Source: Mobula hypostoma
Lineage: Eukaryota
Length of the DNA: 64,000 bases
NCBI RefSeq assembly: GCF_963921235.1
Contig: NC_086097.1
Span: 11,532,001-11,596,000, forward strand
Direction: 5' to 3'
The position numbers and the translations under genes are program-made. Position 1 is the stretch's first letter. Each line of letters opens with the position of its first letter. Under the pieces are notes generated by a model. It saw nothing but the letters and a program-made list of their open reading frames with translations. It ran no database searches and was not told the origin of the DNA. Shown here one piece after another: positions 4,957 to 63,604 of this stretch.

Positions 4957-5616
4957 ATGGTTACATGCAGAAAAAGAAACTTCCTTATTCTTTGCATTTA
5001 GTTCAAGTCTGACAATTTTGAAAGAAGTTATTCTGAATATAGTTCTCATTGTTTAAAAAAACATGCAGGATCTCTTTCATTTTTTACTAGATTTTGTATG
5101 TTGTACATTTTTGTTGTGAAAATTTAAAAAGTTAAATACTGAAACTTTGCTTTTTACACAATGCAGACTTTGTCATTTTTCTGCTACTTCAGTCAAAGAG
5201 CTGTGCAGTATCATGAAATTACAACATGTAAAATGGTAGGAAGCAATGAGAAAAATTATACCCTCTTTTGAGGGAAAAGAGAAAAGAAGTCTTGTTAAAT
5301 TTGCAAATAATGCAGGATTTAGTGTTTTATACTGTGGAGTAGGCGATCGTGCTCATGATTTGTCAGGACATTTGTTAACAATGGCATAAGTACCTGGTTG
5401 TATATCCAGAAGAATATATGTTCCCTTATTATGGTTTTTACCTGGAGCTAACATTGTGCTTATTAATTTTAAATGTACTATAATATTGTAAACCCTGACA
5501 TGTTTCAGTTGTCTTACTTGAATGACATAAATTTCTATACTTTTTTCTGATCACTTGAAAGGATAGCATAATTTTAAAGCTTTTTGCAAAATGAGCTTGT
5601 TAAATGTTCTCAGCAA

Positions 5617-5691
5617 AATAAAGAATTTTCCATGAAAGTGTTCTCTATGTCAGACTATATTGTATACTTTATGTATTTGTGTGTTTGTGTG
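5617..5691 (+). terminator. Candidate polyadenylation signal of the host gene
   Basis: AATAAA at 5617-5622 followed by a GT/T-rich element (tgtatttgtgtgtttgtgtg, ~5672-5691), just before repeats resume. Confidence 0.5.
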
Positions 5692-6826
5692 CACCTCGGT
5701 ATTCCAAAATCTTATTTCTGGGCATCTGAATCAGAATGAGATTTAATATCACTGGCATATGTCGTGAAATTTGTTGTTTTGCAGCCGCAGTACAATCCAA
5801 TACATAATAAAATAAACTAAACAATAAGGAATATATATTTTTTTAATTAAATAAGTAGTGAAAAAAGAGCAAACATGAAAAAAAATCATGAAGGCTATGT
5901 CCATTGTCCTTTTAGAAACTTGATGGCGGAGGGGAAGAAGCTGTTCCTAAAACAATGAGTGTGTGTCTTCAGGCAGAAGTAGGCTCCTAAACCCTTAGCT
6001 GCAGCCTTGGCATCAACTGAGAATGTATTTGTAACTTGTTGAGTTGTATATTCTGCATAACTTCAGAAAAAAATAGTAATTCTGAAACAAAGTATATAGA
6101 TCTGCAATTTGTTGTCAGTCTTTAAAGTAGTTATGAACCAAAATAGCCTATTACAGTGACAGAAAGTTAGAAAATATCTTTCATTCTTTGCAGATGGAGA
6201 GTTAAACCCAGGTATTAAAAGTGTTCTTCTCAAACAATATTGATAGTGCTATTAGCAGCTTACAAGTTTATTTTTAAAATCACTAAAATCTTTAGAGCAC
6301 CACTGTTACATATCTAGAGATTCACTGGTCACAATGGCTCACAATTTTTTTTCTTCTGTTTCACTTTATGGCCATACTAACCCTGAGGAATGTATTATTA
6401 CCTGTAATGCCTCTAATTGGAAAGTATTATTTAGAGGCAAAAGTATAAATTGAGGTATTTCCAAATGGAGCTAAGGATATGGAGTAAATCTTCAACTGGT
6501 ATGAGAGGAAATTCTGGGCACTGCCTGAGATTGAAGATGGAATAAGAATACAGTTTAGACCATAAGATTACAGAAGCAGCATTAGGCCATTTTGCTTATA
6601 GAGTCTGCTCTGTCATTTCATCATGGCTGATCCATATTCGTCCATTCTCACATCTGCAAAGAATGAAAGGTGCTTTATAACTTTCTGTCACTGTAATAGG
6701 CTATTTTGGTTCATAACTACTTTAAAGATTGACAACAAATTGCAGATCTATATACTTTGTTTTAGAATCACTGCTTTTTTTGAAGCAGACCGTACGACCC
6801 CATTTAAATCAGTGGTGCGCAAGTAG

Positions 6827-7530
6827 AACAGGTCAAAAGCTTTAAGTTCCTCGGGGTCAATATCACAAATGACCTGACTTGGTCCAGCCAAGCAGAGTAC
6901 ACTGCCAAGAAGGCCCACCAGCGCCTTTACTTCCTGAGAAAACTAAAGAAATTTGGCCTGTCCCCTAAAACCCTCACTAATTTTTATAGATGCACCATAA
7001 AAATCATTCTTCTAGAGTGCACCACAAACTTGTATGGAAGTTGTCCTGTCCAAGACCAGAAGAAGCTGCAGAAGATCATGAACACAGCCCAGCACTTCAC
7101 ACAAACCAATCTTCTGTCCTTGGACTCACTTCACACAGCACGCTGTTGGAGCAGTGCTGCCAGGATAATCAAGGACATGACCCACCCAACCAACACACTT
7201 TTCGTCCCTCTTCCCTCTGGGAGAAGGCTCAGGAGCTTGAAGACTCGTACGGCCAGATTTGGGAACAGCTTCTTTCCAACTGTGATAAGACTGCTGAACA
7301 AATCCTGACCCGGATCTGGGCCGTACCCTCCAAATATCTGGACCTGCCTCTCGATTTTTTTTTGCACTACCTTACTTTCCCTTTCCTATTTTCTATTTAT
7401 GATTTATAATTAAATTTTTTAATATTTACTATTGATTTGTACTCCAGGGAGCGTGAAGTGCAGAATCAATTATCACTGATGATTGTACGTTCTAGTAACA
7501 ATTGTTTGGCAACAATAAAGTATAAAGTAT
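6827..7530 (+). mobile_element. Rex1/Babar LINE, 5'-truncated (RT C-terminus and 3' UTR)
   Basis: Translates to FKFLGVNITNDLTWSS...AHQRLYFLRKLKKFGLS...KKLQKIMNTAQ...PLPSGRRLRSLKTRTARFGNSFFP; tail aataaagtataaagtat. Confidence 0.85.
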
Positions 7531-7537
7531 ATTCCCT

Positions 7538-8026
7538 CTCAGCCCCAATCTCCTCCTTTCTCTCTGTAGCTCTTCATGCCCTGACTGATCATGAATCTAT
7601 CAACCTCTGCCTTAAATATATTCAATGACTTTGCCTCCATAGCCACCTGTGGCAATGAATTCCACAGATTCACCACTACCTGGCTAAAGAAATTCCTCCT
7701 CATCTCTGTTCTAAAAGGATGCCCCTCTATTCTAAGGCTATGTCCTCTGGTCTTATACCCTCCCACCAAAGGAAGCATCTCTCCATACCCATTCGGTCGA
7801 GGCTCTTCAACATTTGATAGGTTTCAATGAGATCACTCATAGTTCTGAATCTCAGTTAGTATCAAACACTCTTCAAATGACAAGGCTTTCAATCCCAGAA
7901 TCGTTTTCATGAACCTCTTTTGAACTCTCTGCAATGTCAGCACATCCTTTCTTAGATAAGGAGCCCAAAACTGCTCACAATACTCCAAGTGAGGCCTTAC
8001 CAGTGCTTTATAAAGTTTCAATGTTA
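7538..8026 (-). mobile_element. CR1 LINE 3' fragment
   Basis: LYKALVRPHLEYCEQFWAP and TRGHSLRIEGHPFRTEMRRNFFSQ are CR1 ORF2 C-terminal motifs. Confidence 0.9.
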
Positions 8027-9945
8027 CTGCTCAGGTCTTCTGCCTGCTCTGGATGTTTTCATTACTAACTGCCGATGGGACATCAACAGTCCCAACTTCA
8101 CCTCTCCTCTCTCCAATTCCACCCTCACTCCTTACAAACATACTGCTCTCCACTCTTTCTGCACTAATCCTAACCTCACCATCAAACCCACAGATAAGGG
8201 GGGGGGGATGTTGGGGGATGCTATAATAGTCTGGCAGACTGACCTCTATCTTGCTGAGGCCTGGCAACAACTGTCAGACATGTCCACTTACTTAACCCTC
8301 AAACAGGACCCCACTAAGGAGCACCAGGCCATTGTCTTCCAAACCATCACTGACTTAATTAACTCTGGGGATCTCACATCCACTGCCACCAAACTCAATG
8401 TTGCCTCACCCCACACCTCCCATTTCTACCTCCTACCCAAGATCCACAAACCTGCCTATCCAGGTAGACTAGTTCCTGCCCTAATGAACTTGACTCAGTT
8501 TTATACCCCCTGCTTCAGTCCCTTCTTACCTACATCCACGACACTTCACATGCTTTTAATCTTTTCAATGATTTCAAGTTCCCCGGCCCCATTCATCTTA
8601 TTTTCACCATGGATACACAGTCCCGATACACCTCCATCCCCCACTAGGAAGGCCTCAAAGCTTTGTTTCTTTCTGGACCTGACCCAGCCAGTTTCCCTCC
8701 ACCACCATTCTCCATCTGGCAGAACTTGTCCTCACTCACAATAATTTGTCTATCAGCTCCTCCCACTTGCTTCAAACAAAAGACATAGCCATGGGCACTC
8801 GCAGCTGTTCCTGCCTGTTCGTTGACTACATGGAACAGTCTATGTTCCAAGCCTACACTGGTATCACTCCCCAACTTTTCCTACGCTACATCGATGACTG
8901 CATTGGTGCTGCTTCCTGCACCCATGAGAAGCTTGTTGACTTCATCAACTTTGTCTCCACCTTTCACCCCGCCCTAAAATTTACCTGGTTCATTTCCAAC
9001 ACCCACCCCCCCCCCCGCCCCGATCTCACTGTCTCTATCTCTGGCGACAGCTTATCTTCTGATGTTTATTATAAACCCACTGAATCTCGCAGCTACCTGG
9101 ACTATTCCTCTTCCAATCCTGTTACTTGCAAAAATGCCATCCCCTTCTCTCAATTCCTTCGTCTCTGCTGCATCTGCTGTCGGGATGAGGCTTTTCATTC
9201 TAGAAATAAGATGTCCTCCTTTTTCAAAGAAAGAGGCTTCTCTTCATCCATCAGCAATGCTGCTCTCAACTGCATCTTTTCCATTTCGCGCACATCTCCC
9301 CTCACCCCATCCTCCTGCCACCCCACCAAGGATAGGGTTCCTCTTGTCCTCACCTTCCACCATACCAGCCTCCATGTCTGGTACATAATTCTCTGAAACT
9401 TCCACCATCTCCAACGGGATCCCACCACCAAGCACATCTTTCCCTCCCCCCAACCTTCTGCTTTCCCCACGGATCGTTCCTCATGCGACTCCCTTGTCCA
9501 TTCTTCCCTCTCCACTGATCTCCCTCCTGGCAATTACCCTTGCAAGTGGAACAAGTTCTACGCCTAACCCTACACCTTCTCCCTCGCTGTCATTCAGGGC
9601 CCCAAACAGTCCTTCCAAGTGAGGCAACACTTCACCTGTGAGTCTGATGGGGTCATCTGCTGTATCCAGTGCTCCTGGTGTGGCCTCGGGTATACCGGTG
9701 AGACCTGAGGTAGATTGGGAAATCGCTTTGCCAAGCACTTATGCTCCGTCTGCCAGAAAACGCGGGATCTCCCAGTGGCCACCCACTTTAATTCCACTTC
9801 CCATTCCCATTCCAACATGTCAGTCCATGGCGGCCTCTACTGTCGCAATGAGGCTGCACTCAGGTTGGCGGAGCAACACCTTGTATTCCATATGGGTTGC
9901 CCACAACTTGATGGCATGAACATTGATTTCTAGAACTTCCGGTAA
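8027..9945 (+). mobile_element. Penelope-like retroelement (RT plus GIY-YIG endonuclease), disrupted
   Basis: IKPTDKGG, FYLLPKIHK, IAMGT, FLRYIDD, YKPT and AIPFSQFLRL; endonuclease region FTCESDGVICCIQC..CGLGYTGET and HFNSTSH. Frameshifts and stops present. Confidence 0.9.
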
Positions 9946-12845
9946 TAAGTCTATAACATAGGAGCAGAATTAGCCCATTTGGCCCATCAAGTCTGCTATG
10001 CCATTCAATCATGGCTGATCCTTTTTCCCTCTCCTCAGCACCACTCCCAGGCCTTCTCCCCGTAACTTTTGATGCCATGTCCAATCAAGTGCCTTAAATA
10101 CACCCTATGACCTGGCCACCACAGCCACCTGTGGTAACCAATTCCACAAATTCACCACCCTCTGGCTAAAGAAATTTCTCCGCATCTGTTTTAAAGGGAG
10201 GCCCTCTATCCAGAGGCTGTGCCCTCTTCTCCTAGACTCCTCCACCACGGGAAACATCCTTTCCTATCTACTTTGTCTAGGCCATTCAACATTTGAAAAT
10301 TTGCAATGAGATCCCCCTTCATCCTTCTAAATTGCAGTGAGTACAGCCCCAGAGCCATCAAAGAGATTAAGAGTCACGATGTAATGACACAGCTCTATAA
10401 AACTCTGGTTAGGCCACACTTGGAGTATTGTGTCCAGTTCTGGTCACCTCACTATAGGAAGGATGTGGAAGCATTGGAAAAGGTACAGAGGAGATTTACC
10501 AGGATGCTGCCTGGTTTAGAGAATATGCATTATGATCAGAGATTAAGGGAGCTAGGGCTTTACTCTTTGGAGAGAAGGAGGATGAGAGGAGACATGATAG
10601 AGGTGTACAAGATAATAAGAGGAATAGATAGAGTGGATAGCCAGCGCCTCCTCCCCAGGGCACCACTGCTCAATACAAGAGGACATGGCTTTAAGGTAAG
10701 GGGTGGGAAGTTCAAGGGGGATATTAGAGGAAGGTTTTTTACTCAGAGAGTGGCTGGTGCGTGGAATGCGCTGCCTGAGTCAGTGGTGGAGGCAAATACA
10801 CTAGTGAAGTTTAAGAGACTACTAGACAGGTATATGGAGGAATCTAAGGTGGGGGCTTACATGGGAGGGACGGTTTGAGGGTCGGCACAACATTGTGGGC
10901 CGAAGGGCCTGTACTGTGCTGTACTATTCTATGTTCTATGTTCTATGTTCTAAATGTTCTTTGTATGATAACCCTTTCATTCCCAGAAACATCTCTGTGA
11001 ACCATCTCTGAGCCCTTTCCAATGCCAGCACATCTTTTCTTAGATGAGCTCAAAACTTTCATGATACTCAAGGTGCCGCCTCACCAGTGCCTTATAAAGC
11101 TCCACGTCAGATCCCTGCTCTTGTATTCTAGTCCTCTTGAAGTGAATGTTAACATTTCATTTGCCTTCCTCACCACCGACTCAAGCTGCAAATTAACCTC
11201 TAGGGTGTTCTGCACAAGAAATCCCAAGTCCCTTTGCATCTCAGATTTTTGGATTTTCTTCCCGTTTATAAAATAGTGTGCACATTTATTTCTAGTACCA
11301 ACGAGCATGACTATGCACTTTCCAACATTGTATTTAATTTGCCACTTTCTTGCCCATTCTCCCAATCTGTCTAAATTCTTTTGCAGCCTTCCTCTTTCTT
11401 CAACACTACCTGCCCCTCCACAAATCTTTGTATCATCTGCGAACTTGGCAAAAAAAACATCTATTCCGTCATCTAAATCATTTATATACAGCATAAAAAG
11501 AAGTGGTCCCAACACCGAACCCTGCGAAGCATCACGAGTCAGTGGCAGCCAAACAGAAAAGGATCCTTTTTTCTCACTCGCTGCCTCTTACCAATCAGCC
11601 AATCCTCCAACCATGCCAGTAATACCATGGGCTCTTAATGTGGTAAGCAACCTCGTGTGGCACCTTGTCAAAGGCCTTCTGAAAGTCCAAAAATACAACA
11701 AACCCCACTGCATCACCTTTATCTATCCTACTTGTAATCTCCTTAAAGAATTCCAGCAGGCTTGTCAGTACTCCATAATCTCATCCTTAACAATTGACTC
11801 CAACATCTTCCCAGCCACTGTGGTTAGGCCAACTGGTCCATAATTTCCTTTCTGCTGCCTTCCTCCTTTCTTAAAGAGTGGAGTGACATTTGCAATTTTC
11901 CAGTCATCCGGCACCATGCCAGAGTCCGATAATTTTTGAAAGGTCATTACTAATGTCTCCACAATCTCAACCGTTACTTCTTTCAGTACTCTAGGGTGCA
12001 GTTTGTCTGGTCCGGGTGACTTATATTCCCTTAGGTCTTTCAGTTTTTTGTGCACAACCTCCCTTGTAATAGTAACTGCACTCACTTCTCTTCCCTCACA
12101 CACTGCAACACCTGGCACACTGCTGGTGTTTTACACAGTGAAGACTGATGCAAAATACTAATTTAGTTCATCTGCCATCTGCTTGGCCTGCATTATTATT
12201 TCTCTGGCTTCATTTTCTACTGTTCCTATATCCACTCTGAGCTCTCTTTTGCTTTATACGTACTTGAAAAAGCTTTTACTATCCACTTTGATATGGCTTG
12301 CTTTCAAATTTCACCTTTTGCCTCCTAATGATTCTTCTAGTTGCTCTCTGTAGGTTTTTAAAAGCTTTCCAACTCTACTATTTCGCTGATTTTGTTTTGT
12401 TGTATGCCCTCTCTTTTGCTTTTACATTAGCTTTGACTTCCCTTGTCAGCCACGGTGGTACTATTTTGTCATTTTTGCCTTTGTTTTTGGAATGCATCTA
12501 TCTGCATCTTCCTCATTTTAACCAGAAACTCATACCATTGCTGCTCTGCTGTCATCCCTGCCAGCATCTCCTTTCAATTTATTTTGGCTAGCTCCTCTCT
12601 CATACCACTGTAATTTCCTTTGCTCTGTTGAAATACAGCTACGTCAGACTTTACCTTCTCCCTATCAAATTTCAAGTTGAACTCAATCATATTGTGATCA
12701 CTGCCTTCTATCGGTTCTTTTACCTTAAGCTCTCTAATCACCTCCAGTTCATTACATAACACCCAATGCAGTATAGCTGATCCCCTATTAGGCTCAACAA
12801 GCTGCTCTAAAAAAGCCATCTTGTAGTCATTCAACAAAGTCATTG
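9946..12845 (-). mobile_element. CR1 LINE ORF2 (EN C-terminus to 3' UTR), degraded, interrupted at 10363-10951
   Basis: SDHNMIEF, KSPGPDKLHPRVLKE, WKIANVTPLFKKG, LGPLLFMLYINDLD, KFADD; 3' UTR ggagcagaattagcccatttggccc. Confidence 0.9.
10363..10951 (+). mobile_element. Younger 5'-truncated CR1 inserted antisense into the older CR1
   Basis: Open frame LYKTLVRPHLEYCVQFWSP...; (TTCTATG)n tail at 10927-10952. Host sequence agagccatcaaa|tgttc resumes after the insert. Confidence 0.9.
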
Positions 12846-17349: not shown

Positions 17350-18067
17350 AGAACATAGAATATAGAAATCTACAGCACATTACAGGCCCTTCAGCCCACA
17401 ATGTTGTGCTGACCATGTAACCTACTCTAGAAGCTGCCTAGAATTTCCCAACTGCAGAGCCCTCTATTTTTCTATTATCCATGTTCTTATCTAAGAGTCT
17501 CTTAAAAGACCCTATTGTATCCGCCTCTACCACTGGTGCAGGCAGTGCACTCCATGCACCCAGTAGTCTCTGTGAGAAAAACTTACTTCTGACATCCCCC
17601 TTGTACCTACTTCCAAGCACCTGAAAACTATTCAACTCATGTTAGCCATTTCAGCCCTGCGAAAAAGCCTCTGACTATCCACACGATCAATGCCTCTCAT
17701 CATCTTATACACCTCTGTCAGGTCCCCTCTCATCCTCTGTAGCTAGATGGAGAAAAAGCCAAATTCCCTCAACCTATTCTCATAAGGCATGCTCCCCAAT
17801 CCAGGCAACATCCTTGTAAATCTCCTCTGCCCTCTCTCTATAGTATCCACACCCTTCCTGTACTGAGGTGACCAGAAACAAACACAGTACTCCAAGTGGA
17901 GTTTGTCCAGGTTTCGATATAGCTGTCACATTACCTCTCGGCTCTTGAACTCAGTCCCACGGTTGATGAATGCCAACACACCATACGCCTTCTTAACCAC
18001 ACTATCAACCTGCAGAGCAGCTTTGAGCATCCTGTGGACATGGACCCCAAGATCTCGCTGATCCTGG
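17350..18067 (-). mobile_element. CR1 3' fragment
   Basis: DQRDLGVHVHR...KKAYGVLAFINRG; tail agaacatagaatatagaaa. Confidence 0.9.
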
Positions 18068-18295
18068 AATGATGGGAGGGGTATGGATAGGTAAATGATG
18101 GGAGGGGTATGGATAGGTAAATGATGGGAGGGATATGGATAGGTAAATGATGGGAGGGATATGGATAGGTAAATGGTGGGAGGGGTATGGATAGGTAAAT
18201 GATGGGAGGGGTATGGATAGGTAAATGATGGGAGGGGTATGGATTGGTAAATGATGGGAGAGATATAGATAGGTAAATGGAAGGGATATGGATAG
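18068..18295. repeat. 26-bp minisatellite, ~8.8 copies (aatgatgggaggggtatggataggta)
   Basis: Direct tandem units visible in the sequence; explains the repetitive ORFs at 17926-18363. Confidence 0.95.
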
Positions 18296-19680
18296 AAACA
18301 TAGAAACATAGAAAAGCTACAGCACAATACAGGCCATTCGGACCATAAAGTTGTGCCACACATGTCTCTACTTTAGAAATTACTAGGCCTAACTAAAGCC
18401 CTCTATTTTTCTAAGCTCCATGTACCTATCCAAAAGCCTCTTAAAAGACCCTATCGTATCCACCTCTACCACCGTTGCCGGCAGCCCATTCCATGCACTC
18501 ACCACACTCTCAGTAAAAAACTTACCCCTGACATCCCCTCTGTACCTACTCCCCAGCACCCTAAACCTGTGTCCTCTTGTGGCAACCATTTCAGCCCTGG
18601 GAAAAAGCCTCTGACTATCCACACAATCAATGCCTCTCATCATCTTATACACCTCTATCAGGTCATCTCTCATCCTCCATCACTCCAAGGAGAAAAGTAT
18701 GAGTTCACTCAGCCTATTCTCATAAGACATGCTCCCCAATCCAGGCAACATCCTTGTAAGTCTCCTCTGCACCCTTTCTATGGCTTCCACATCCTTCCTG
18801 TTGTGAGACGACCAGAACTGAGCACAGTACTCCAAGTGGGGTCTGACCAGGGTCCTATATAGCTGCAACATTACCCCTCGGCTCTTAAATTCAATCCCAT
18901 GGTTAATGAAGGCCAATGCACCGTATGCCTTCTTAACCACAGAGTCAACCTGCAGAGCAGCTTTGAATGTCCTATGGACTCGGACCCCAAGATCCCTCTG
19001 ATCGTCCACACTGCCAGGAGTCTTACCATTAATACTATATTCTGCCATCATATTTGACCCACCAAAATGAACCACTTCACACTTATCTGGGTTGAACTCC
19101 ATCTGCCACTTCTCAGCCCAGTTTTGCATCCTATCAATGTCCCGCTGTAAACTTTGACAGCCCTCCACTCTATTCGCAACACCTCCAACCTTTGTGTCAT
19201 CAGTAAATTTACTAACCCATCCCTGCACTTCCTCATCCAGGTCATTTATAAAAATCACGAAGAGTAAGGGTTCCAGAACAGATCCCTGAGACATTCCACT
19301 GGTGACCAGCCACCATGCAGAATATGACCCGTCTACAACCACTCTTTGCCTTCTGTGGGCAAGCCAGTTCTGGATCCCCTTGGATCTTACTTTCTCCATA
19401 AGCTTTGCATGGGGTACCTTATCAAATGCCTTGCTGAAATCCATATACACATATCTACTGCTCTTCCTTCATCAATGTGTTTAGCCACATCCTCAAAAAA
19501 TTCAATCAGGCTCGTAAGGCACAACCTGCCCTTGGAAAAGCCATGCTGACTATTCCTAATCATATTATACCTCTCCATATGTTCATAAGTCCTGCCCCTC
19601 AGGATCTTCTCCATCAACTTATCAACCACTGAGGTAAGACTCACTACTCCATAATTTCCTAGACTGTCTCTACTCCCTAT
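18292..19680 (-). mobile_element. CR1 RT plus 3' end
   Basis: YMDFSKAFDKVPH, QGSVLEPLLFVIFINDLD, KFTDD; (AGAAACAT)n tail. Confidence 0.92.
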
Positions 19681-31723: not shown

Positions 31724-34720
31724 AAAAGTGGCAGGCCGACAAATCCAGGGCAAGCATTAAAAAGGGCCACTTTTCAACATAATTGTATAAGGGCTAAGAG
31801 AGTTGTAAAAGAGCGCCTGAAGGCTTTATGTGTCAATGCAAGGAGCATTCGTAATAAGGTGGATGAATTGAAAGTGCAGATTGTTATTAATGATTATGAT
31901 ATAGTTGGGATCACAGAGACATGGCTCCAGGGTGACCAGGGATGGGAGCTCAACGTTCAGGGATATTCAATATTCAGGAGGGATAGACATGAAGGAAGGG
32001 GAGGTGGGGTGGCGTTGCTGGTTAAAGAAGAGATTAACGCAATAGAAAGGAAGGACATAAGCCGGGAAGATGTGGAATCGATATGGGTAGAGCTGCGTAA
32101 CACTAAGGGGCAGAAGACGCTGGTGGGAGTTGTGTACAGGCCACCTAACAGTAGTAGTGAGGTCGGAGATGGTATTAAACAAGAAATTAGAAATGTGTGC
32201 AATAAAGGAACAGCAGTTATAATGGGTGACTTCAATCTACATGTAGACTGGGTGAACCAAATTGGTAAAGGTGCTGAGGAAGAGGATTTCTTGGAATGCA
32301 TGCGGGATGGTTTTTTGAACCAACATGTCGAGGAACCAACTAGAGAGCAGGCTATTCTGGACTGGGTTTTGAGCAATGAGGAAGGGTTAATTAGTGATCT
32401 TGTCGTGAGAGGCCCCTTGGGTAAGAGTGACCATAATATGGTGGAATTCTTCATTAATATGGAGAGTGACATAGTTAATTCAGAAACAAAGGTTCTGAAC
32501 TTAAAGAGGGGTAACTTTGAAGGTATGAGATGTGAATTAGCTAAGATAGACTGGCAAATGACACTTAAAGGATTGACAGTGGATATGCAATGGCAAGCAT
32601 TTAAAGGTTGCATGGATGAACTACAACAATTGTTCATCCCAGTTTGGCAAAAGAATAAATCAAGGAAGGTAGTGCACCCGTGGCTGACAAGAGAAATTAG
32701 GGATAGTATCAATTCCAAAGAAGTAGCATACAAATTAGCCAGAGAAAGTGGCTCACCTGAGGACTGGGAGAAATTCAGAGTTCAGCAGAGGAGGACAAAG
32801 GGCTTAATTAGGAAGGGGAAAAAAGATTATGAGAGAAAACTGGCAGGGAACATAAAAACGGACTGTAAAAGCTTTTATAGATATGTAAAAAGGAAAGACT
32901 GGTAAAGACAAATGTAGGTCCCCTGCAGACAGAAACAGGTGAATTGATTATGGGGAGCAAGGACGTGGCAGACCAATTGAATAATTACTTTGGTTCTGTC
33001 TTCACTAAGGAGGACATAAATAATCTTCCAGAAATAGTAAGGGACAGAGGGTCCAGTGAGATGGAGGAGCTGAGTGAAATACATGTTAGTAGGGAAGTGG
33101 TGTTAGGTAAATTGAAGGGATTGAAGGCAGATAAATCCCCAGGGCCAGATGGTCTGCATCCTAGAGTGCTTAAGGAAGTAGCCCAAGAAATAGTGGATGC
33201 ATTAATGATAATTTTTCAAAACTCGTAAGATTCTGGACTAGTACCTGAGGATTGGAGGGTGGCTAATGTAACCCCACTTTTTAAAAAAGGAGGGAGAGAG
33301 AAACCGGGGAATTATAGACCGGTTAGCCTAATGTCGGTGGTGGGGAAACTGCTGGAGTCAGTTATCAAGGATGTGATAACAGCACATTTGGAAAGCGGTG
33401 AAATGATCGGACAAAGTCAGCATGGATTTGTGAAAGGAAAATCATGTCTGACGAATCTCATAGAATTTTTTGAGGATGTAACTAGTAGAGTGGATAGGGG
33501 AGAACCAGTGGATGTGGTATATTTGGATTTTCAAAAGGCTTTTGACAAGGTCCCACACAGGAGATTAGTGTGCAAACTTAAAGCACACGGTATTGGGGGT
33601 AAGGTATTGGTGTGGGTGGAGAATTGGTTAGCAGACAGGAAGCAAAGAGTGGGAATAAACGGGACCTTTTCAGAATGGCAGGCGGTGACTAGTGGGGTAC
33701 CGCAAGGCTCAGTGCTGGGACCCCAGTTGTTTACAATATATATTAATGACTTGGATGAGGGAATTAAATGCAGCATCTCCCAGTTTGCGGATGACACGAA
33801 GCTGGGTGGCAGTGTTAGCAGTGAGGAGGATGCTAAGAGGATGCAGGGTGACTTGGATAGGTTGGGTGAGTGGGCAAACTCATGGCAGATGCAATTTAAT
33901 GTGGATAAATGTGAAGTTATCCACTTTGGTGGCAAAAATAGGAAAACAGATTATTATCTGAATGGTGGCCGATTAGGAAAAGGGGAGGTGCAACGAGACC
34001 TGGGTGTTATTATACACCAGTCATTCAAAGTAGGCATGCAGGTACAGCAGGTGGTGAAAAAGGCGAATGGTATGCTGGCATTTATAGCAAGAGGATTCGA
34101 GTACAGGAGCAGGGAGGTACTACTGCAGTTGTACAAGGCCTTGGTGAGACCACACCTGGAGTATTGTGTGCAGTTTTGGTCCCCTAATCTGAGGAAAGAC
34201 ATCTTTGCCATAGAGGGAGTACAAAGAAGGTTCACCAGATTGATTCCTGGGATGGCAGGACTTTCATATGAAGAAAGACTGGATGAACTGGGCTTGTACT
34301 CGTTGGAATTTAGAAGATTGAGGGGGGATCTGATTGAAACGTATAAGATCCTAAAGGGATTGGACAGGCTAGATGCAGGAAGACTGTTCCCGATGTTGGG
34401 GAAGTCCAGAACGAGGGGTCACAGTTTGAGGATAGAGGGGAAGCCTTTTAGGACCGAGATTAGGAAAAACTTCTTCACACAGAGAGTGGTGAATCTGTGG
34501 AATTCTCTGCCACAGGAAACTGTTGAGGCCAGTTCATTGGCTATGTTTAAGAGGGAGTTAGATATGGCCCTTGTGGCTACAGGGGTCAGGGGGTATGGAG
34601 GGAAGGCTGGGGCGGGGTTCTGAGTTGGATGATCAGCCATGATCATAATAAATGGTGGTGCAGGCTCGAAGGGCCGAATGGCCTACTTCTGCACCTATTT
34701 TCTATGTTTCTATGTTTCTA
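31724..34720 (+). mobile_element. Young CR1 with near-intact ORF2 (APE endonuclease plus RT)
   Basis: CVNARSIRNK, GITETWL, GDFN, SDHN, QGSVLGP, QFADD. One frameshift (~32890) and one in-frame TAA (33226-33228); 3' UTR hairpin and (TTCTATGT)n tail. Confidence 0.97.
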
Positions 34721-47310: not shown

Positions 47311-48977
47311 CTACAAGGGAAAAAAGCATTGATCTTAAGCATGTGCTGTCGTTTTTTCTGAAAGCTCGATAAATTGATATTAATAAAAAGATAAAATAAT
47401 TTTTACCTCCTTTGAGGATGTATATCCAACTAATTCTATTAACTATTCCCATGAGGCAAAAATTCTAACCTCTTCTATCCTGAAGTTGACCATTATTTGA
47501 AATGAGTAAGTAATCAAAAGAATTGACTCTACAAGTCATTCAATTCACTGAAACTTCTCGACAGGAAGACGTGTCACCTCCAGGTTCTTTGGTACCTTTA
47601 GGTTCTTTTGTATGAGGTATACTAAGCTAGTGCATTATCTGCAGGTTATTAAAACAAAATTCTTAGCCTGATAAAGTTGGATCATGAACATGACCAATTT
47701 AGCATTTAATGCAGATGAGAATTATGGTATCTGAAAAGGATTAGGCTATAAAGATGCCAACTAGGCCCTTGGTGCTAATATGTTTCATTAGGTAATATAG
47801 ACCCTGCTTTAAACTAATATATACCGTAATTGGAAATAATATAGTTCTCTTCCATTACATTTTCTCTTTCTGGTCTCAACTACAAAAGCTCCTGAAATGC
47901 CAACTGTCAAAATATTTTCATTGGTACATCATGAGAATATGGCTGTCAGTTAAACCCTAACATTTTGTCTAATACGATTTCAAAGTTTAATGTTGTAACA
48001 TTCATTATTTCCCTCATTCCATGCAAAGTCTTCAAGGAGTTATTCATATACAGTACTTAAAGACCTAGGCATGTGCTGAGTTCCTTATGCAGGTTGACTG
48101 CTGGTGAATGGCCAGGGTGAAGTACTAATCAAATGTAGGAGGGCTAAACTCACCATTCCATATATTATTTTACATGAAGCATTTTATTTTGTAAAAGTAC
48201 TGTTTCTAGCCAATCAATTCTACAAAAGACATTTTCTCCAATAATCTGATTTCAAAAGTTTTCTCAACCAATAGTGAAACACACTAAATGCAACAGGTAT
48301 CATTAATGAAAAGCTCAGATGCCACAAGTCACCTTAGCTACTGTATCTTAGCCACCTTAGTCTACATTCACAGTTAATGTGCACAAGAATGGATAAAGCC
48401 ATCAGGAAACTTGCCTAATCAATGCTCATTACTAGTGAATATCTAAATGGACTGGACAGGAAAATCTAAATTTCAAGTTCAAGTTCAAATTTATTGTCAT
48501 TCAGCCGAATACATGTATATCGCCAAATGAAACAATGTCCTCTGGATGAAGGTGAACAGCACACTACGTAGAACTCGCACACAACACATTCTGACAACAT
48601 TTAAAATGTGAACAGTATAATGCTACTGGCACCTCATGCATGGTGAGACCTGGATGGTGGCAGGGGATCCAGTCTGAGAGAAGAAGCTGTTCCCCATCCC
48701 AAGAGTCCTTGTCCTAATGCTAACGTACCTCCTGCCTAATGGTAGGTGCTACATTTTGTAATTGCAAAACATCAAAACTAATTGAAATAAAAACATGGAG
48801 CCAGGAATAATGTGTCTAACTTTATTTTTACATTTAGCGAGGTATGTCCGTATGATTCGGTGGCATGAGGATGTGTGCCATTCATGTACTTTTACATATA
48901 ACCCACAATGAGTTATTTAAATGAACAAATAAGGCTTAATATATTTATAATATTATTCAAACACATATTACTGAAAT

Positions 48978-49530
48978 TTTTTGTGTTCGTCCATCGTTGA
49001 CGTCGATGAGGACCTCGACACCATTATGATGGTGTTGGGACTAGCGCGTCATTTGGATTTAAGTGAGGGAGAGTTGTGCAGTGTCAGCCTCACTCTCTCT
49101 TCCCAATTCCCATCTGGATCCAGTGGCAAGACAGAGTCGAGACGGCTGCAGAGGGGACTAGGCGCAGTGGATGACCAGGACATCTGCTGTGTCTTGTCCT
49201 GCTGTACACGTTCCACGACGCTGGCAGAGACTGCCTTCTTGACTGTTGGACCTTCCATTGGTCTCGGCCGCTCAATCCGCTGGAGTCTGTCTTCACATGC
49301 TGGGATAGACAACTCCGTATCTCACCAGTCGGCTACCCTCACCTGGTTTTTTCGGCTTGTCGAAGCTGTTGCCCGGGGTGTGGCCGCCGTCACATGCAAA
49401 CGGCTACGGGGAGCCACAGGTGAGAGCTGAGTGCCAGGTGGGGACCAAAGGTGGGTCTAACCGCCTTGAAAAGGATACAACATGCTCCCCCACCAGAGGT
49501 GCTACCCCTCCCTGACACCCCATACACCCC
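48978..49530 (-). mobile_element. Non-autonomous non-LTR retroposon (~550 bp), possibly derived from an RTE- or Ingi/Vingi-type LINE
   Basis: TSD CTGAAAT (48971-48977, 49530-49536), short A-tail, GC/CpG-rich structured body, no RT coding; inserted in the Gypsy 3' LTR. Confidence 0.75.
49335..49530 (-). ncRNA. HDV-like self-cleaving ribozyme fold at the element 5' end
   Basis: P1 GGGGUGU/ACACCCC; P2 GCUCUCACCUG/CAGGUGAGGGU; P3 GGC/GCC; L3 UCCCCGU; P1.1 CC/GG; GGGCAACA junction; P4 GCUU-CGAC-AAGC; J4/2 CGAAAAAA. Folded by eye. Confidence 0.7.
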
Positions 49531-49805
49531 TGAAATATTAAACACTCAGAATTCTTCCCTGCTTAGCTATAAACTCCAACTTCATATAGAATGCATCACA
49601 ACTTATATATAATACATATATATAATACAACTACTAGATAGACATCCATAGCATAGTAAATTTTAAATTGACCTTTTAAGGCCTAAAGTTTTAATCACTG
49701 TGTAGGATTTCTTACACTTGTGGGATAACGTCTTTCCAGATAAAAGAGGATCACTCTGCTTGGCAGGTGACTCTTGTGACTTTGAAACAATCTCGGGCTC
49801 TGGGA

Positions 49806-49901
49806 CAACACGCACAAAATTCTGGAGGAACTCAGCAGGTCAGGCAGCATCTATGGAAATGAATAGACAGTCGCCGTTTCAGGCCAAGATCCTTCTTCAG
49901 G
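49806..49901 (-). mobile_element. Short Penelope-associated repeat with hammerhead core, inserted in Gypsy
   Basis: Reverse complement cCUGAAGA-AGG-aucuugg-CCU-GAAAc-ggc-gacug; flanks gctctggg / gttctggg resemble a TSD. Confidence 0.6.
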
Positions 49902-50739
49902 TTCTGGGGCCTTCTCCATGCTGGTTGTAAGAGTTTAATCTGAGCCTTCAGGAAGTGGTTTTGACAGCTTTGGACATCTTTCTTCTGGACATGTTGGTAA
50001 CCCAAACAGTGCATGGCAAGCTGCTTGTTCTGCTGAATCCCAGGCTGCCAGTCAGATCCTTAAACCAATGCTTTCATTCTGACCACACCTTGATGATAAG
50101 CATGTTGCTCTTCTAAAACTTTAGCTCTGGTACAGCAACTTTCAATCCCCATCTAAGGCAACCCTCGTCAAGGGCAAGTTCATCCCGGCTCTGGTAAAAA
50201 TGGAAGAAGTCGAGTTTCTGCGGCATCTTTTAGCCATTTTGGGTAGACCTGAAACAGTGAGGTTTTTTCTGGTTTCCCTTTAGATCCTCTCTGCTGTAAT
50301 GGGGAGATTTTCTATTTGCGTTAGAGAGAATACGTAAAAAGGAGTGTCCACTTTTGTATATTTTTCAAGTATTTGCTTTCCAAGAGTAAATTGGACAATG
50401 CATCAGCATTTCCATGATTAGTTGTCCTTTTGAATTTGACCTTGTAATTGTCAGGGTACAGCGTATGACGTCACTATTTCCTTTAGCTTTAGAAAGCCGC
50501 CTCACACTGCTTTGTCCATTGCCATTTCTTCCTAATCTGTAGTAGTCAGTTCAAGAAGTGTAGCACAGTAGCCAGGTTTGGCAGGAACCTACTATAGTAA
50601 TTGACAAATCCTAAAAAGGACATGACTGTGATACATCCTCTGGTCTTGGGGCACCCACAACTGCTTGAATTTTCACAGAATATTTGTGTAATTTTGTACA
50701 TAAATGCTGTGACCACAGTAAGTGATGCTTGGTTTAAAT

Positions 50740-50819
50740 CAGAGATTCCCAACTAGGGGTCCATGGACCTCTCGGGTAATGGTAGGGGTCCATGACATAA
50801 AAAAGGTTAGGAACCCCTG
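50740..50819. mobile_element. 80-bp hAT-type MITE
   Basis: TIRs cagagattcccaac / gttaggaacccctg; 8-bp TSD gtttaaat / gtttaaag. Confidence 0.75.
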
Positions 50820-50882
50820 GTTTAAAGAATTCACACTTGTTGCTTTGTGCTCTCAGCCAATAATCTTCCAATCTTTTTCATA

Positions 50883-52288
50883 ATCAGAATCAGGTTTCAT
50901 ATCACCAACATATATCGTGAAGTTTGTTAACTCATTGGCACCAGTTCAAGGTAATACATAATAAATATCGAAAAAAGGTAAATCAATTACAATAAGCATA
51001 TATATGTATACTAAATAGTTAAATTTAAAATAATGCAAAAACAGAAATAATAAAAAAGTGAGGTAGTGTTCATGGGTTCAATGTCATTTACGAGTCAAAT
51101 GGGATAGGGAAGAAGCTGTTTCAGATTTGCTGAGTGTGTGCCTTTAGGCTTCTGTACCTCTTTCGTGCTGTTAACAATGAGAAGAGGGCGTGTCCTGGGT
51201 GATGGGAGTCTTTAATAATGGACGCCACCTTTCTGAGGCACCACTCCTTGAAGATGTCTTGGATACTATGGAGGCTAGTACCCAAGATGGAAAAATGTCT
51301 AAGTTTACAACTTTCTGAGGCTTCTTTGGATCCTGTGCAGTAGCGTCCCTCTCCCATGCAGCCTGTCAGAATGCTTTCCAAATGTTTTAGGTGACAAACC
51401 AAATCTCCTCAACTCCTAATGAAATATTGCTGCTGTCATACCTTCTTTAAAGCTGCATCAGTAAGTTGGGACCAGGTTAGATCCTCAGAGATCTTGTCAC
51501 TCAGGAACTTGAAACTGCCTCACTCTCCACTTCTGATCCTTCTTTGAGGATTGGTTTGTGTTCCCTTGTCCTATACTTTCCTAAGTCCACAATCTGCTCT
51601 TTGGTCTTGCTCACATTGAATACAAAGTTGTGGCTGCGTCACACTCAACTAACTGTATAGGTATATCTCGCTTCTATACACCCTCTCATCTCTATCTCAG
51701 ATTCTGCCAACAATGTTTGCATCATCAGCTAATTTATAGATGGCACTTGAGCTATACCTGGCCACACTGTCTTGGGTATAGACAGAGTAGAGCAGTGGGC
51801 TAAGCACACATCCCTGAGGTGCACCAGCTTTGATTGTTAGCGAGAAGGAGGTATTTTTACCCATCTGAGCAGATTGTGGTCTTCCAGTTAGGAAGTTAAG
51901 GATCCAATTGCAGAAGAGGTACAGAGGCCCAGGTTCTGGACTGTAGGAATGATGGTGTTAAACGCCGAACTATAGCCAATGAACAGCATCCTGACATAAG
52001 TGTTTGTGTTGCCCAGGTGACCTAAGCCCATGTGAAGGGCTATTGAGATTGTGTCTGCCGTAGACCTATTGAAGCGATAAGCCAATTTCAGTGGGTCCAG
52101 GTTCTTGCTGAGGCAGGAGTTGATTCTAGCCATGACCAACCTGTCAAAGCATTTCAACAATGTAGACATGAGCGCTATTTGATGATAGTCACTGAGGCAG
52201 CTCACACTGCCCTTATTGGGCACTGGTATAGTTTTTGGCCTTTTGAAGCAGGTGGGAACTTCGGACTGTAGCAGTGTGAGGTTGAACA
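50883..52288 (-). mobile_element. Rex1/Babar LINE (RT plus 3' UTR) inserted in Gypsy pol
   Basis: [50 protein letters not shown]. Confidence 0.88.
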
Positions 52289-52820
52289 GTGTTGTGATTT
52301 TGGAGATTTTCCTTGTCATCTTTACTGGTAACGATGATGCCATCCAGGTAACACTGAGTGCCTGGCAACTTAGCAGCACCTGGTCCAGGGGCTTCTGCCA
52401 GAGTGCAGGTTCAGATGCCTCTCCAAAAAATAAGCCTATTACTGTATAGTGATAAAGCCCTTTATGAGCGTTTATGGTGAGAAATACCTCAAACTCTTCT
52501 TCCATCTCCATCTGTAGGTAGGCCTCAGCTAAGTCTACTTTACTTAAGTGTTTCCCTCCAGAAACATTCTCAAAGATATCCTGTATCCTCAGCAGAGGGT
52601 ATTGATTGAGCTTTAGTGCTGAGTTGATGGTGACTTTAAAATCACCACAGATCCTGACAGGCCCATTTTTCTTGGCTACTAGGACCACTGGCTTTGCTAA
52701 TGAAAGAATTCCTTCAGCCTCCATGAAATATAGCTCACTGGCTACTTTATCACGGATGGTATAGGAACTAGATGGGCTTTGCTAAACTTGGGTGTGGCAT
52801 TTTCATTTAACACTATTATA

Positions 52821-55800
52821 CAGGTCAGGTCAGGTCAGGGCCTTGCACCACGTAGCCCAGTACTACCTGTCTTGGGTCGGGTTGTCAGCGACTCAGCCGG
52901 CACACCCCCTGGTGCACTTTGGTTAACCAGAGAGGAGGGTGTGTAGGCACCCAGTAGGACTAAAAACAAAACCTGTCAAAGGGCAGATGAACTCTTTGTG
53001 AGTCAACGGCCACCTACTGTCTGTGTGAGGAGTGGCGCACCACACAGTCTTCCATTTCGCGCCTTGTAAGGCATTATGATGACAGACAACCCAACAAACC
53101 CTATACTTCCAGACCCGGGAGTGCTCAGGAACTCCACAGAACGCCCAGACCCTGGCCGAGACAGGCAGTATGAAGATGCAACCACAAATCCTACGGAGAG
53201 GGTTAAGTCCGACAAGGGGGCTGAGCGAACTGCGCCTCTTTTGCATTGTAAGGTAAAAACGATCATATCAACCTTCAACATAAACACCATCTGCCTCTTG
53301 CCTCGAAGCACAGAGTTGGCATCACAGGCAAGCAGATATGAGATCTCTATCCTGGGGATCCAAGAACACTGTCATGTACACCCTGACGAAGAAATAAGGT
53401 TCACAGAGGTAGAGGGGATGCACCTCATCACCTCATCCGCATGGAGAGAGCTGATGACGATGTCAGCACAAGGTGGAGCAGGGCTGATGGTGAACAGCAA
53501 GGCGAAGGAGGCACTGAGGGGCGTCGTCTCAGTCTGTGACAGAATCCTTACTACAGAATTCGACGGAAACCCGGCGACCTCTGTCATCACCTGTTACTCC
53601 CCGCACAACCGCAGCGAGGAGAAGGAGGTGGAGGCCTTCTACAGTAAACTTCACGAAGCTGTCACTTCAATACCGGCACATAACTTCCTGGCTGTGCTCA
53701 GCGCTTTTAATGCCCAGGTCAGACTGGAAGATGTTCCATACTCATACCAAGACTTTACCAACAGAAGTGGACAATATCTAGTTGATTTCATCCAGGAACA
53801 CAGTCTCATTGCCGCCAACACACAATTCAAGAAGCGAGCTGGTAAACTGTGAACGTACGAACACAGAGCCTCCATCTACAGGAAACAGGTCGATTACATC
53901 CTCGTTAAGAACAAAATGGCGTAATTGTGTGATCAACACAGAAGCCTACAGCACCTTCAACTCGGTCAGTTCTGATCACAGAGTAGTGTCAATGCAAGTG
54001 AGACTGAGCCTGCGGCAACCCAAAGCCACAGGTCCCAAGGAGAAGATAGACTGGAAGGCATTCTCCTCACAACTTGTTCTTCAAGCCCAGTACACAGTGG
54101 GGGTGAGAAATTGCTTCAGCCCACCGGAAAGGGGGGGAGGAAGAGACTGCCACTGACCACTATCAATGGCTCATAGACGCACACACAGATGCAACAAAGA
54201 GTTTCCCTACTGTGAAGCGAATCAAGAAGAGTCAGATCTCAAAACATCCTGATGTCGTCGCAGCAAGAAGTGTGGTCCATGCTTGTCATGCTGAACTTAG
54301 AAGGAGTGAAACAGAGGAGCTAAGAGATAAGTTCAAGACAGCAAAGAAGAATCTCTTTGCCACCTACGACTGACTGAAGGAAGAGGAACTAGCTGAGAGG
54401 ATTAGAGAGACAGAAGCTGCTAATGAAGACATGCAGCATGGAGAAGCATGGTGCCTAGTCAATGAGATCAGTAGACGGAAGAAGTCCCCATTAGATCAAA
54501 TAAGTGGTAAAACAGCAGAAGACCGCGTCCTGACATGGTTTACCCACTTTAAGAACCTGCGGGGAAGCCCTCCAATGATCACGGAAGAAGAAGACATACG
54601 CACGATACTAACGCAAGTCGACATCGATGACAGCCCATTCACTATTGAGGAACTGAAGAAGGCCAACTATGTGCTCAAACAGGGCAGGAGCACTGGACCA
54701 GATCGGATACCACCAGATGTCCTGAAGAACTGCGACCTGGATGACATCTTGCTGGACATATGTAATACGGCATTGCGTAAAAAGCCGACAAACCAGAACA
54801 GTGGTCACTCTCAAACATTATCCCAGTCCCCAAGTCTGGATCCCTCACAAAGACAGATAACTACTGCGGTATCAGCTTGACCTGCATTTTAGCAAAATTA
54901 TACAATCGGATGATCTTGAACAGGATTCGCACCGCCATTGACCCTAAGCTAAGATTAAATCAGAATTGTTTTCGGCAGAAGCGCACAACAGTAATGCAAA
55001 TACTTGCTCTCCGTAGGATCATTGAGGAAGTCAAGAAGAACAACCTACCAGCCATGCTTACTTACATCGATTTTCGCAAAGCTTTTGACTCCATTCATCG
55101 AGGTAAAATGCTGAAGATCCTGAAAGCTTACGGAGTGCCAGGCCATCTACTGAGGGCAATAGAGCCCAGCTATACCAAGACAATGGCGAAAGTTGTATCA
55201 CCAGACAGAGAAGCAGCAGTGTTCGAGCTCCTAGCTGGTGTGCTGCAAGGAGACACTCTGGCACCCTACATCTTTATAATCGTCCTTGATTACGCTCTGC
55301 GTCAAGCTACCAAAGATCATGACAAGCTTGGTTTTACTATAAAACCAGGGCGAACCAAAAGGGTCAGACCAGTTACGCTCACAGATCTCGATTTTGCAGA
55401 TGACAAAGTCCTGCTCTCTGACCAGATGGAGGAAGCACAGCAGCTACTGACAAAAGTGGAAAAGTGCAATAAAGTTGAACTTCACCCAAACGCTAAAAAG
55501 ACAATGGTGTTTAGCTGGGACAAAGGTACTCTCAAGACCATAGAGAATGATACCATTAAGAAAGTCTTTGACTATAAGTACCTTGGGTCAAGAATGATGA
55601 GTTCAGGGAAGGACATAAAGGTACGGAAGGCGCTGGCGTGAAGGGCTATGAACGACATGAAGGAAATCTGGAAGTCAAACCTGACCAGAGGGCTTAAAAG
55701 GAGGATTTTCATAGCAGTCACAGAGTCCATTCTCACATACGGATGCGAGACGTGGACACTCACCAAGACGATGCGAAAGTCTCTAGATGGTTGCTATACA

Positions 55801-56155
55801 CGAATGCTCCAGATGGCTCTTGATGTGAGTTGGCAACAGCACATGACGAACGTTGAGCTCTATAACAACCTACCGATGCTCTCCACTAAAATCGAGGCGA
55901 GAAGACTGCAATTAGCGGGGCACTGTCTACGCCACCCCGAGCTACCTGCCAGCCTAGTCATCATATGGGAGCCCAAGAATGGTAGGATGAACCCTGGGTG
56001 CCCTCCCAAGACTATGGTCTACACGCTCCTAGAAGACAGCGGTGTGGCTAATGTAGATGAACTGAACACACTGATGAGGGAAAAGGAGAAGTGGAGGGTC
56101 TGTCATCGTGCCCGACGCCGGCCCCCGGGCCTGAGTCGACATAGTGGTAGTAGTA
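52821..56155 (+). mobile_element. Near full-length RTE-superfamily LINE (single EN-RT ORF, disrupted)
   Basis: 5' UTR; EN ISTFNINT, LGIQEH, CYSPHN, FNAQV, SDHR; RT FRQKRTT, DFRKAFDSI, GVLQGDTLAP, DFADD, YLGS; (AGT)n tail. Gypsy sequence resumes at 56156. Confidence 0.92.
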
Positions 56156-56209
56156 CCCTTGATAATTTTGAGTTTTCCACTGCCATCTTTGAATGCTGCT
56201 GTGTCACGT

Positions 56210-57351
56210 TAGAAACATAGAAACATAGAAAACAGGTGCAGGAGTAGGCCATTCGGCCCTTCGAGCCTGCACCACCATTTATTATGATCATAGAAACATA
56301 GAAACATAGAAAATAGGTGCAGGAGTAGGCCATTCGGCCCTTCGAGCCTGCACCGCCATTTATTATGATCATAGAAACATAGAAAATAGGTGCAGGAGTA
56401 GGCCATTTGGCCCTTCAAGCCTGCACCGCCATTTATTATGATCATGGCTGATCATCCAACTCAGAACCCCGCCCCAGCCTTCCCTCCATACCCCCTGATC
56501 CCCGTAGCCACAAGGGCCATATCTAACTCTCTCTTAAATATAGCCAATGAACTGGCCTCAACTGTTTCCTGTGGCAGAGAATTCCACGGATTCACCACTC
56601 TCTGTGTGAAGAAGTTTTTCCGAATCTCGGTCCTAAAAGGCTTCCCCTTTATCCTCAAACTGTGACCCCTTGTTCTGGACTTCCCCAACATCGGGAACAA
56701 TCTTCCTGCATCTAGCCCGTCCAATCCTTTTAGGATTTTATACGTTTCAATCAGATCCCCCCTCAATCTTCTAAATTCCAACGAGTACAAGCCCAGTTCA
56801 TCCAGTCTTTCTTCATATGAAAGTCCTGCCATCCCAGGAATCAATCTGGTGAACCTTCTTTGCACTCCCTCTATGGCAAGAATGTCTTTCCTTAGATTAG
56901 GGGACCAAAACTGCACACAATACTCCAGGTGTGGCCTCACCAAGGCCTTGTACAACTGCAGTAGTACCTCCCTGCTCCTGTACTCGAATCCTCTCGCTAT
57001 AAATGCCAGCATACCATTCGCCTTTTTCACCACCTGCTGTACCTGCATGCCCACTTTCAATGACTGGTGTATAATGACACCCAGGTCTCGTTGCACCTCC
57101 CCTTTTCCTAATCGGCCACCATTCAGATAATAATCTGTTTTCCTATTTTTGCCACCAAAGTGGATAACTTCACATTTATCCACATTAATTTGCATCTGCC
57201 ATGAATTTGCCCACTCACCCAACCTATCCAAGTCACTCTGCATCCTCTTAGCATCCTCCTTACAGCTAACACTGCCACCCAGCTTCGTGTCATCCGCAAA
57301 CTTGGAGATGCTGCATTTAATTCCCTCATCCAAGTCATTAATATATATTGT
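56210..57351 (-). mobile_element. Young 5'-truncated CR1 with triplicated 3' terminus
   Basis: 290-aa open frame nearly identical to the C-terminal part of ORF 33259-34623; three copies of the terminal ~75-80 nt at 56210-56444. Confidence 0.95.
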
Positions 57352-63225: not shown

Positions 63226-63298
63226 GTAACTTTACATACTTTTTATATAACTATTATGTACAGACACTCTTGTGCCTAGACTCATTTAATGAACATAC

Positions 63299-63604
63299 TA
63301 CTACTACTACATCGACTCAGGCCTAGGGGACCGGCGTTGGGCACGATGACGGACTCTCCACTTCTCCCTCTCCTTCATCAGTGTGTTCAGTTCATTTACA
63401 TTAGCCGCGCCGCTGTCTTCTAGGAGCGTGTTGACCATAGTCTTGAGAGGGTGCCCAGGGTTCATCCTCCCGTGCTTGGGCTCCCATATGATGACTAGGC
63501 TGGCAGGTAGCTTGGGGTGGCGTAGACAGTGCCCCGCTAATTGCAGTCTTCTCACCTCGATTTTAGTGGTGAGCATCGGTAGGTTGTTATAGAGCTCAAC
63601 GTTT
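63299..63604 (-). mobile_element. 5'-truncated copy of the RTE family at 52821-56155
   Basis: NVELYNNLPMLTTKIEVRRLQLAGHCLRHP; (AGT)n tail; 10-bp TSD ATGAACATAC (63289-63298, 63605-63614). Confidence 0.92.

Follow-up and report, generated by a model that had tools for sequence, protein, structure and literature searches.

A patchily distributed internal-loop RNA module in RTE-type retroelement leaders, with a predicted kink-turn-like function

The subject of this analysis is a short RNA motif in the 5' leaders of two retroelements from Mobula hypostoma (NCBI RefSeq assembly GCF_963921235.1, contig NC_086097.1, positions 11,532,001 to 11,596,000, forward strand). The 64,000 nucleotides analyzed are called the window and are numbered from their first base. 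The motif has two helices of exchangeable sequence and a fixed internal loop between them. We conclude that the motif is a genuine RNA module that occurs patchily among RTE leaders, more broadly than first described; its function is predicted. We estimate at roughly 0.35 the probability that this recurring leader module folds into a protein-stabilized kink aiding translation of probably ribozyme-cut, uncapped RTE RNA. Judged by its sequence, the module would belong to the structured cis-elements found in leaders of non-LTR (non-long terminal repeat) elements, as a kink-turn (k-turn)-like variant.

Two motif copies and a redrawn loop

Direct reading of the sequence located both copies described in the first-pass annotation, one in a short element on the minus strand and one in a long element on the plus strand (Table 1). 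A scan of the whole window with the motif pattern gave exactly two matches, these same two copies. In 300 dinucleotide shuffles of the window no match with stems was found, and the loop letters alone matched 0.06 times per window; this control is circular, the pattern having been fitted to the same two copies. Independent support was therefore sought in a related locus (L003, see below), in published consensi and in contigs of the short family.

The loop had been drawn as an 8x6 internal loop. Its conserved letters stand, and it is better drawn in the order outer helix, G.G mismatch, two pairs (C-G and G-C), a 5x3 loop with GANGA opposite CAA, and inner helix. Copy 1 does not have the letters of most family members at 49267 and 49244. 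The majority letters at these positions in four runs from four organisms give GCGGACGA/CAACGG. An A at 49267 makes up 99.9, 99.9, 99.8 and 97.9% of depth and a G at 49244 makes up 88, 91, 80 and 76%. Among the rows listed (40 of 67) no further differing row falls inside 49239-49275. The CpG observed/expected ratio of the window is 0.29. Given the family-majority letters and the CpG depletion of the window, the variation at the purine positions of the earlier loop consensus is likely due to CpG decay; the variants GCAG, GUGG, CAACAG and CAAUGG are likely the expected products.

The flanks of the two copies had been described as dissimilar. This does not hold in general: the hairpin extends beyond copy 1 and includes a GGA/GAA 3x3 loop also seen in published RTE leaders. 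The extended hairpin also has a closing C-G pair and the remnant of a second CGG/GCGG element (family majority at 49281 and 49232), and its layout, compared by eye, equals the double motif of RTE-2_Croc-type leaders. Copy 2 is enclosed by a longer helix (about 52953-52959 with 53013-53019). A start-codon reading of the AUG within the motif (52987 in the window; 317 and 427 in L003) was rejected: the AUG vanishes where N is A, C or G.

Table 1. Coordinates of the motif copies, their carrier elements and associated features in the window
Feature	Coordinates	Strand	Remarks
Motif copy 1	49239..49275	minus	4-bp outer helix; 4-bp inner helix, 7-nt loop
Copy 1 strands	49271-49264; 49248-49243		purine-rich strand; CAA strand
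Motif copy 2	52981..53011	plus	2-bp outer helix; 4-bp inner helix
Copy 2 strands	52983-52990; 53004-53009		purine-rich strand; CAA strand
Extended hairpin	49231..49283	minus	around copy 1; GGA/GAA 3x3 loop, 49278-49276 with 49238-49236
Short element, classed by sequence as bipartite non-autonomous RTE	48978..49530	minus	5' untranslated region (UTR) fused to RTE 3' end; A tail
Predicted hepatitis delta virus (HDV)-like nested double pseudoknot	49337..49530	minus	P1 7 bp, P2 8-9 bp, P3 3 bp
Long element, read as decayed full-length RTE-type long interspersed nuclear element (LINE)	52835..56157	plus	ends approximate at 5'; short TAG-repeat tail
Ten-base box	53028..53037	plus	44-48 bases before ATG; invariant in 4/4 leaders compared

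Recurrence and pairing in related leaders

A protein-led scan of metagenome contigs gave seven loci (L001 to L007). L005, L006 and L007 have no leader and were left out. The four loci with a leader form two families, and L004 repeats the upstream sequence of L001. L003, a full-length decayed RTE relative, carries three motif copies with new stems at 278, 313 and 423. The copy at 278 was found by the preset pattern, and those at 313 and 423, which read GUAUGA/CACC, were spotted by eye. The third copy stands just before the ten-base box, as copy 2 does in the window, and the motif-to-ATG distances are similar (67 bases in the window, 62 in L003). The box recurs at L001 3956, L002 479 and L003 470, with the motif or a diverged hairpin just upstream of it; in L003 it closes a multi-branch junction containing the third motif copy.

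Statements on published work refer here and below to those parts of the cited papers and supplements that were covered. In the supplement of Kojima 2018 (PMC5786205), IdioSINE2 is aligned with 15 RTE consensi, of which 10 cover the motif region; with IdioSINE2 itself this gives 11 sequences. Judged by eye, six of the 11 have an inner stem of 4 to 7 uninterrupted pairs with different letters, four have 2 to 3 pairs or an interrupted stem, and one has a shortened purine strand. The motif is found in published RTE and short interspersed nuclear element (SINE) consensi. IdioSINE2-group leaders contain a second copy in opposite polarity that is closed by a near-invariant 3-bp helix, and a GGA/GAA 3x3 loop and a 4-bp helix lie between the head-to-head copies. 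This 3x3 loop is also present in the short element, whose 4-bp helix differs at all four pairs. The arrangement varies (single, tandem or head-to-head, one to three copies per leader), and the carriers, several RTE-type elements, range from this fish to cephalopods and crocodilians.

Neither the viral collection (no RTE relatives, no match to the double-motif pattern) nor the plasmids (no match) yielded a further example. Thirty-three prokaryotic and three viral sequences that matched the loop letters exactly were judged to be chance, having no RTE protein and no stems. CAAYGG words in BovB were not counted as they lie in a different hairpin. The two carriers had been presented as different retroelements; they are distinct, yet both leaders are of the RTE type. 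For that reason the motif in both is most likely one inherited module rather than a convergence.

The five-copy set used for pairing tests (two window and three L003 copies) is small, related, partly hand-picked and made up entirely of decayed copies. An inner helix of at least 4 bp is present in 5/5 copies versus 0/36 chance matches (1/36 reaches 3 bp). In the five-copy alignment 72.5% of cells pair, and two-sided changes occur at four of the eight scored pairs. None of the 500 shuffles and none of the slid controls reaches the covariation score of the alignment; the count of pairs with two-sided changes was equalled in 44 of 500 shuffles. Positions C2, G7, A8, C1', A2' and C4' are invariant in all five copies. 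The original observation, that the stems differ yet keep pairing while the loop is fixed, extends to the five copies and to six of the 11 published consensi. The proposal that RTE-like LINEs share a conserved cis-acting RNA element is supported by the independent, stem-compensated copies in L003 and in published RTE consensi, with the chance matches unpaired.

These data bear on two alternatives. The motif could be a leftover of an old leader duplication, shared by ancestry and without present function: both carriers are RTE-type, one close family has no motif and all five copies are decayed. Complete stem turnover with pairing kept and six loop positions fixed speaks against such a relic, which we regard as improbable. 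Alternatively, the fixed short words in a 5' UTR could be a promoter or transcription-factor site acting at the DNA level, as Kojima 2018 speculates for conserved RTE 5' UTR sequence. However, the stems compensate, and G.U pairs occur in two L003 copies (L003a and L003c) and in RTE-15_CPB and RTE-4_Croc, so that a sense-strand RNA is favored. The gap between the two words ranges from 13 to 18 bases among the five copies, which also disagrees with a DNA site. We consider it very unlikely.

Comparison with the covariance models of Rfam 15 assigned no named family. The window had no match at gathering threshold and none over either motif at E<=10, and L001 to L003 had none at E<=5. No structural description of the motif was found among the open full-text papers and passages covered. 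Kojima 2018, in the parts covered, describes similarity at the sequence level without an RNA structure and notes cross-phylum conservation of RTE 5' UTR sequence.

The carrier elements and their ribozyme-like heads

The short element is, from its sequence, a bipartite non-autonomous RTE of a subgroup other than that of the long element. It is flanked by a 6-bp target-site duplication (48972-48977 and 49531-49536) and has no long frame (the longest sense ATG frame is 69 codons). Compared by eye with the Kojima 2018 supplement, its 3' half resembles the leaders of RTE-2_CPB, RTE-11_PSi and RTE-3_PM and the 3' end of RTE-1_PSi. About 3,200 to 10,200 contigs per run overlie it in the runs from four organisms. 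Contigs leave the element at 49530 in 4/4 runs (132, 113, 136 and 62 contigs) and at 48984 in at least three runs.

The 5' part of the short element can be folded into an HDV-like pseudoknot with a 19-base hairpin inserted in L3. The strict HDV descriptor gave no match, and a descriptor permitting the L3 insertion fits the short element. On shuffles, 0/500 matched with P1 of 7 bp and P2 of at least 8 bp and 6/500 gave any match. In the model the element's 5' end is G1 of P1, and the predicted ribozyme cut site coincides with its first base. In most members of the short family J4/2 is canonical and includes the catalytic C. In the window copy J4/2 (49350-49352) is replaced by an A run and the catalytic C is lost, and because of this replacement the window copy is likely a dead ribozyme. 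Family majority and window copy differ by a compensatory pair change in the L3-inserted hairpin (49402 with 49388). The fold ends at 49337 and the motif helix begins at 49275, about 60 bases downstream; the motif lies outside P1-P4 and so is not part of the HDV-like core. The P1 5' strand is present twice, at 49530 and at 49521. At 49400-49455, depth and loose ends at 49453 indicate a second related family that has only the ribozyme core in common. Its L3 changes at 49408 and 49409 are dominant in run X15.

We read the long element as RTE-type from its single-open reading frame (ORF) layout of endonuclease plus reverse transcriptase and from its relatives. Behind a leader of about 240 bases, a broken frame for both activities starts from ATG 53076. 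This frame matches RVT_1; its relatives are 882-1020 aa long, some with PF03372 plus PF00078, and the closest named proteins to the endonuclease are from Mobula rays (83-87% identity). The C-terminal motifs appear typical of RTE. A target-site duplication was looked for around the long element and none was found. At 52845-52915 in the window and at about 76-170 in L003 there are L3-like and J4/2-like words resembling an HDV-like head, with no complete fold by descriptor. The HDV-like heads in the long element and L003 have probably decayed to these remnants.

The window holds other repeats. A 3' fragment of the long element's family (92% identical) is found at 63296-63603 (minus). Two LINE 3' ends at 33733-34714 and 56370-57351 are 97% identical and in opposite orientation, and the one at 56370-57351 is inserted directly behind the long RTE. 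A tandem array of a 26-base unit in about ten copies is located at 18042-18301. In L003, a short conserved RTE word (236-260) immediately precedes the first motif copy. IdioSINE2 has the same order, and there Kojima 2018 (PMC5786205) took the word as the leftover of another RTE. An upstream frame in L003 (317-430) starts in the second motif copy and stops in the third; it is not conserved in other families.

Predicted function and comparison with known systems

A loop whose letters stay fixed, stems that vary freely and a copy number that differs between leaders together suggest a modular recognition site. In the preferred reading, a read-through transcript would cut itself, which leaves no cap. 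G7.A2' and A8.C1' would form tandem non-canonical pairs behind a G-A-N bulge in the style of a non-standard k-turn. A host RNA-binding protein, with an L7Ae-family protein as the first candidate, would bind the module, and the bound protein would promote initiation at the single ORF. In non-coding derivatives the module may be a passive holdover, or it may place their RNA close to ribosomes that are translating the element protein. This host-protein reading is put first because the RNA would be uncapped and the ATG spacing is similar in one subgroup. HDV-like ribozymes in RTE elements and translation of the internal ribosome entry site type from such leaders have been reported (PMC6765202); translation from ribozyme-cut leaders was proposed for R2 and L1Tc (PMC6765202) and reported as cleavage-dependent for the RTE element Perere-3 (PMC8501958).

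Two of the k-turn rules agree with the motif. A 3-nt bulge followed by G and A is seen in 5/5 copies, as G-A-N (U-A-U in two L003 copies) and then G7 and A8. Adenines occupy 1n and 2b, with A2' and A8 invariant in 5/5 in the register that keeps the covarying stem. The freely varying position of the motif is where the third bulge base of a k-turn would sit. The non-standard Kt-23 accepts other bases at 2n (PMC3985660), and k-turns whose folding depends on protein are recognizable by a G:C pair at -1b:-1n (PMC5689011). More specifically, the module may be a non-standard k-turn with A.C at 2b.2n and a single additional base opposite the bulge, arranged in tandem or as pseudo-twofold pairs, that captures a host L7Ae-family protein and ribosomes on the uncapped, ribozyme-cut RNA. 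We hold this narrower version to be doubtful.

Several observations weigh against a protein-stabilized kink that aids translation. The standard k-turn has G at 2n, and the motif has C in 5/5 copies; nothing should stand opposite the bulge, and one extra base (A, C or G) is present between 1n and -1n. The L001/L002/L004 family has a diverged hairpin in the motif's place, so the motif is found in one of the two relative families with a leader. The two window leaders fold no better than shuffles (z of -1.15 and -0.97). With 120-base flanks the inner helix is predicted to be well populated in one of the five copies, and forcing it would cost 1.1-6.6 kcal/mol in the models. These folding values come from decayed copies and from nearest-neighbor models, which give no credit to non-canonical loops. 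Model R1, derived from the five-copy set, gave two bacterial chance matches a higher score (23.1 bits) than its lowest-scoring member (19.0 bits), and with it no additional copy in the window or in L001 to L007 exceeded 13 bits. The HDV descriptor with L3 insertion fits neither the long element nor L001 or L003. Finally, the short family and IdioSINE2 retain the module though they encode nothing.

This last point fits another reading, in which the endonuclease/reverse transcriptase that the element encodes would itself bind the module, for ribonucleoprotein (RNP) assembly and template choice; head-to-head copies would then bind two subunits. The module is intact in these mobile non-coding elements, and RTE is among the few clades with bipartite derivatives that keep the 5' UTR (PMC5786205). 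The R2 protein binds its 5' RNA (PMC6765202) and both UTRs are used in engineered RTE-1 templates (PMC13708176). Against it, WALLSI SINEs spread although their leader portion is limited to what follows the motif position, and the motif is absent from visible BovB, AviRTE and Ceph-type sequences, which are fragments only. An own-protein site is ranked second: retention of the module in non-coding elements speaks for it and the spread of WALLSI SINEs that lack the module against it; we see it as possible, though on the unlikely side. Alternatively, the module could be purely architectural, bending or packing the leader or shielding the uncapped 5' end from exonucleases with no specific protein. 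Multiple copies and the adjacent GGA/GAA loop suggest a repeated building block, and k-turns often mediate tertiary contacts (PMC3985660). Its intrinsic stability is weak in the models, however, and copy number and arrangement vary by family, as would be expected of a modular binding site more than of a single fixed fold. This makes a purely architectural role unlikely.

The question touched is how single-ORF RTE elements translate and package uncapped RNA. RTE-1 UTRs are under empirical optimization for gene-writing tools (PMC13708176), and the translation/packaging question becomes testable by point mutation in a module of 30 bases that has six fixed positions and exchangeable stems. If real in the proposed form, the module would add a recurrent internal-loop type and would explain part of the cross-phylum RTE 5' UTR conservation that Kojima 2018, in the parts covered, left unexplained. 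If the k-turn/L7Ae version is right, it would be the first defined cap-independent translation module of the RTE clade, also exploited by non-coding parasites.

The first-pass annotation noted a loose likeness of the loop to the hammerhead core, short of a match. GANGA-stem-NAA aligns position-exact, with the same variable position, and several core letters are lacking. The suggestion of catalysis is not supported. In favor of a catalytic RNA related to the hammerhead core, C3-A9, stem II and G12-A14 of the published consensus (PMC3088659) each find a counterpart in the motif, in its purine strand, its stem and its CAA strand. However, U4 is G or U, G12 is C, A15 is missing, and the motif is a two-way loop instead of a three-way junction. 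Its CAA strand, C-A-A-C, continues directly as the outer helix, with no stem III and no NUH site, and no CUGANGA core occurs in the three leaders; permuted hammerheads retain CUGAnGA and GAAA (PMC10085705). The element ends are accounted for by the HDV-like fold. Hammerhead-type catalysis is therefore highly improbable here. Leaders with HDV-like or twister ribozymes (R2, L1Tc, RTE, Perere-3) are likewise structured, with a predicted cut at the first base and proposed cap-independent translation; the motif forms a unit of its own that follows the ribozyme and lies outside its core. A twister reading of the L001-L003 leaders was dropped, with no Rfam match.

The k-turns, in particular Kt-23 and the protein-dependent box C/D type, share with the motif two helices, a purine-led unpaired trio followed by G and A, adenines at the 1n and 2b equivalents and a G:C pair before the bulge (PMC3985660, PMC5689011). 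The motif differs in the C at 2n, the extra base on the non-bulged strand and the G.G mismatch two pairs off. It may work like a k-turn; this is predicted by analogy, and the motif is not classed as one because of the C at 2n and the extra opposing base. The double k-turn of archaeal RNase P RNA (PMC5499556) likewise has two kink-like units in one hairpin arm. Those units overlap and share a helix, whereas the motif units face each other across a 4-bp helix and the GGA/GAA loop. The closest published sequence is the 5' UTR fragment of IdioSINE2, RTE-2_Croc and RTE-2_LCh (PMC5786205), which contains the motif loop twice, head-to-head; the covered parts of that work do not link this group to the two RTE subgroups in the window, both of which carry the same loop.

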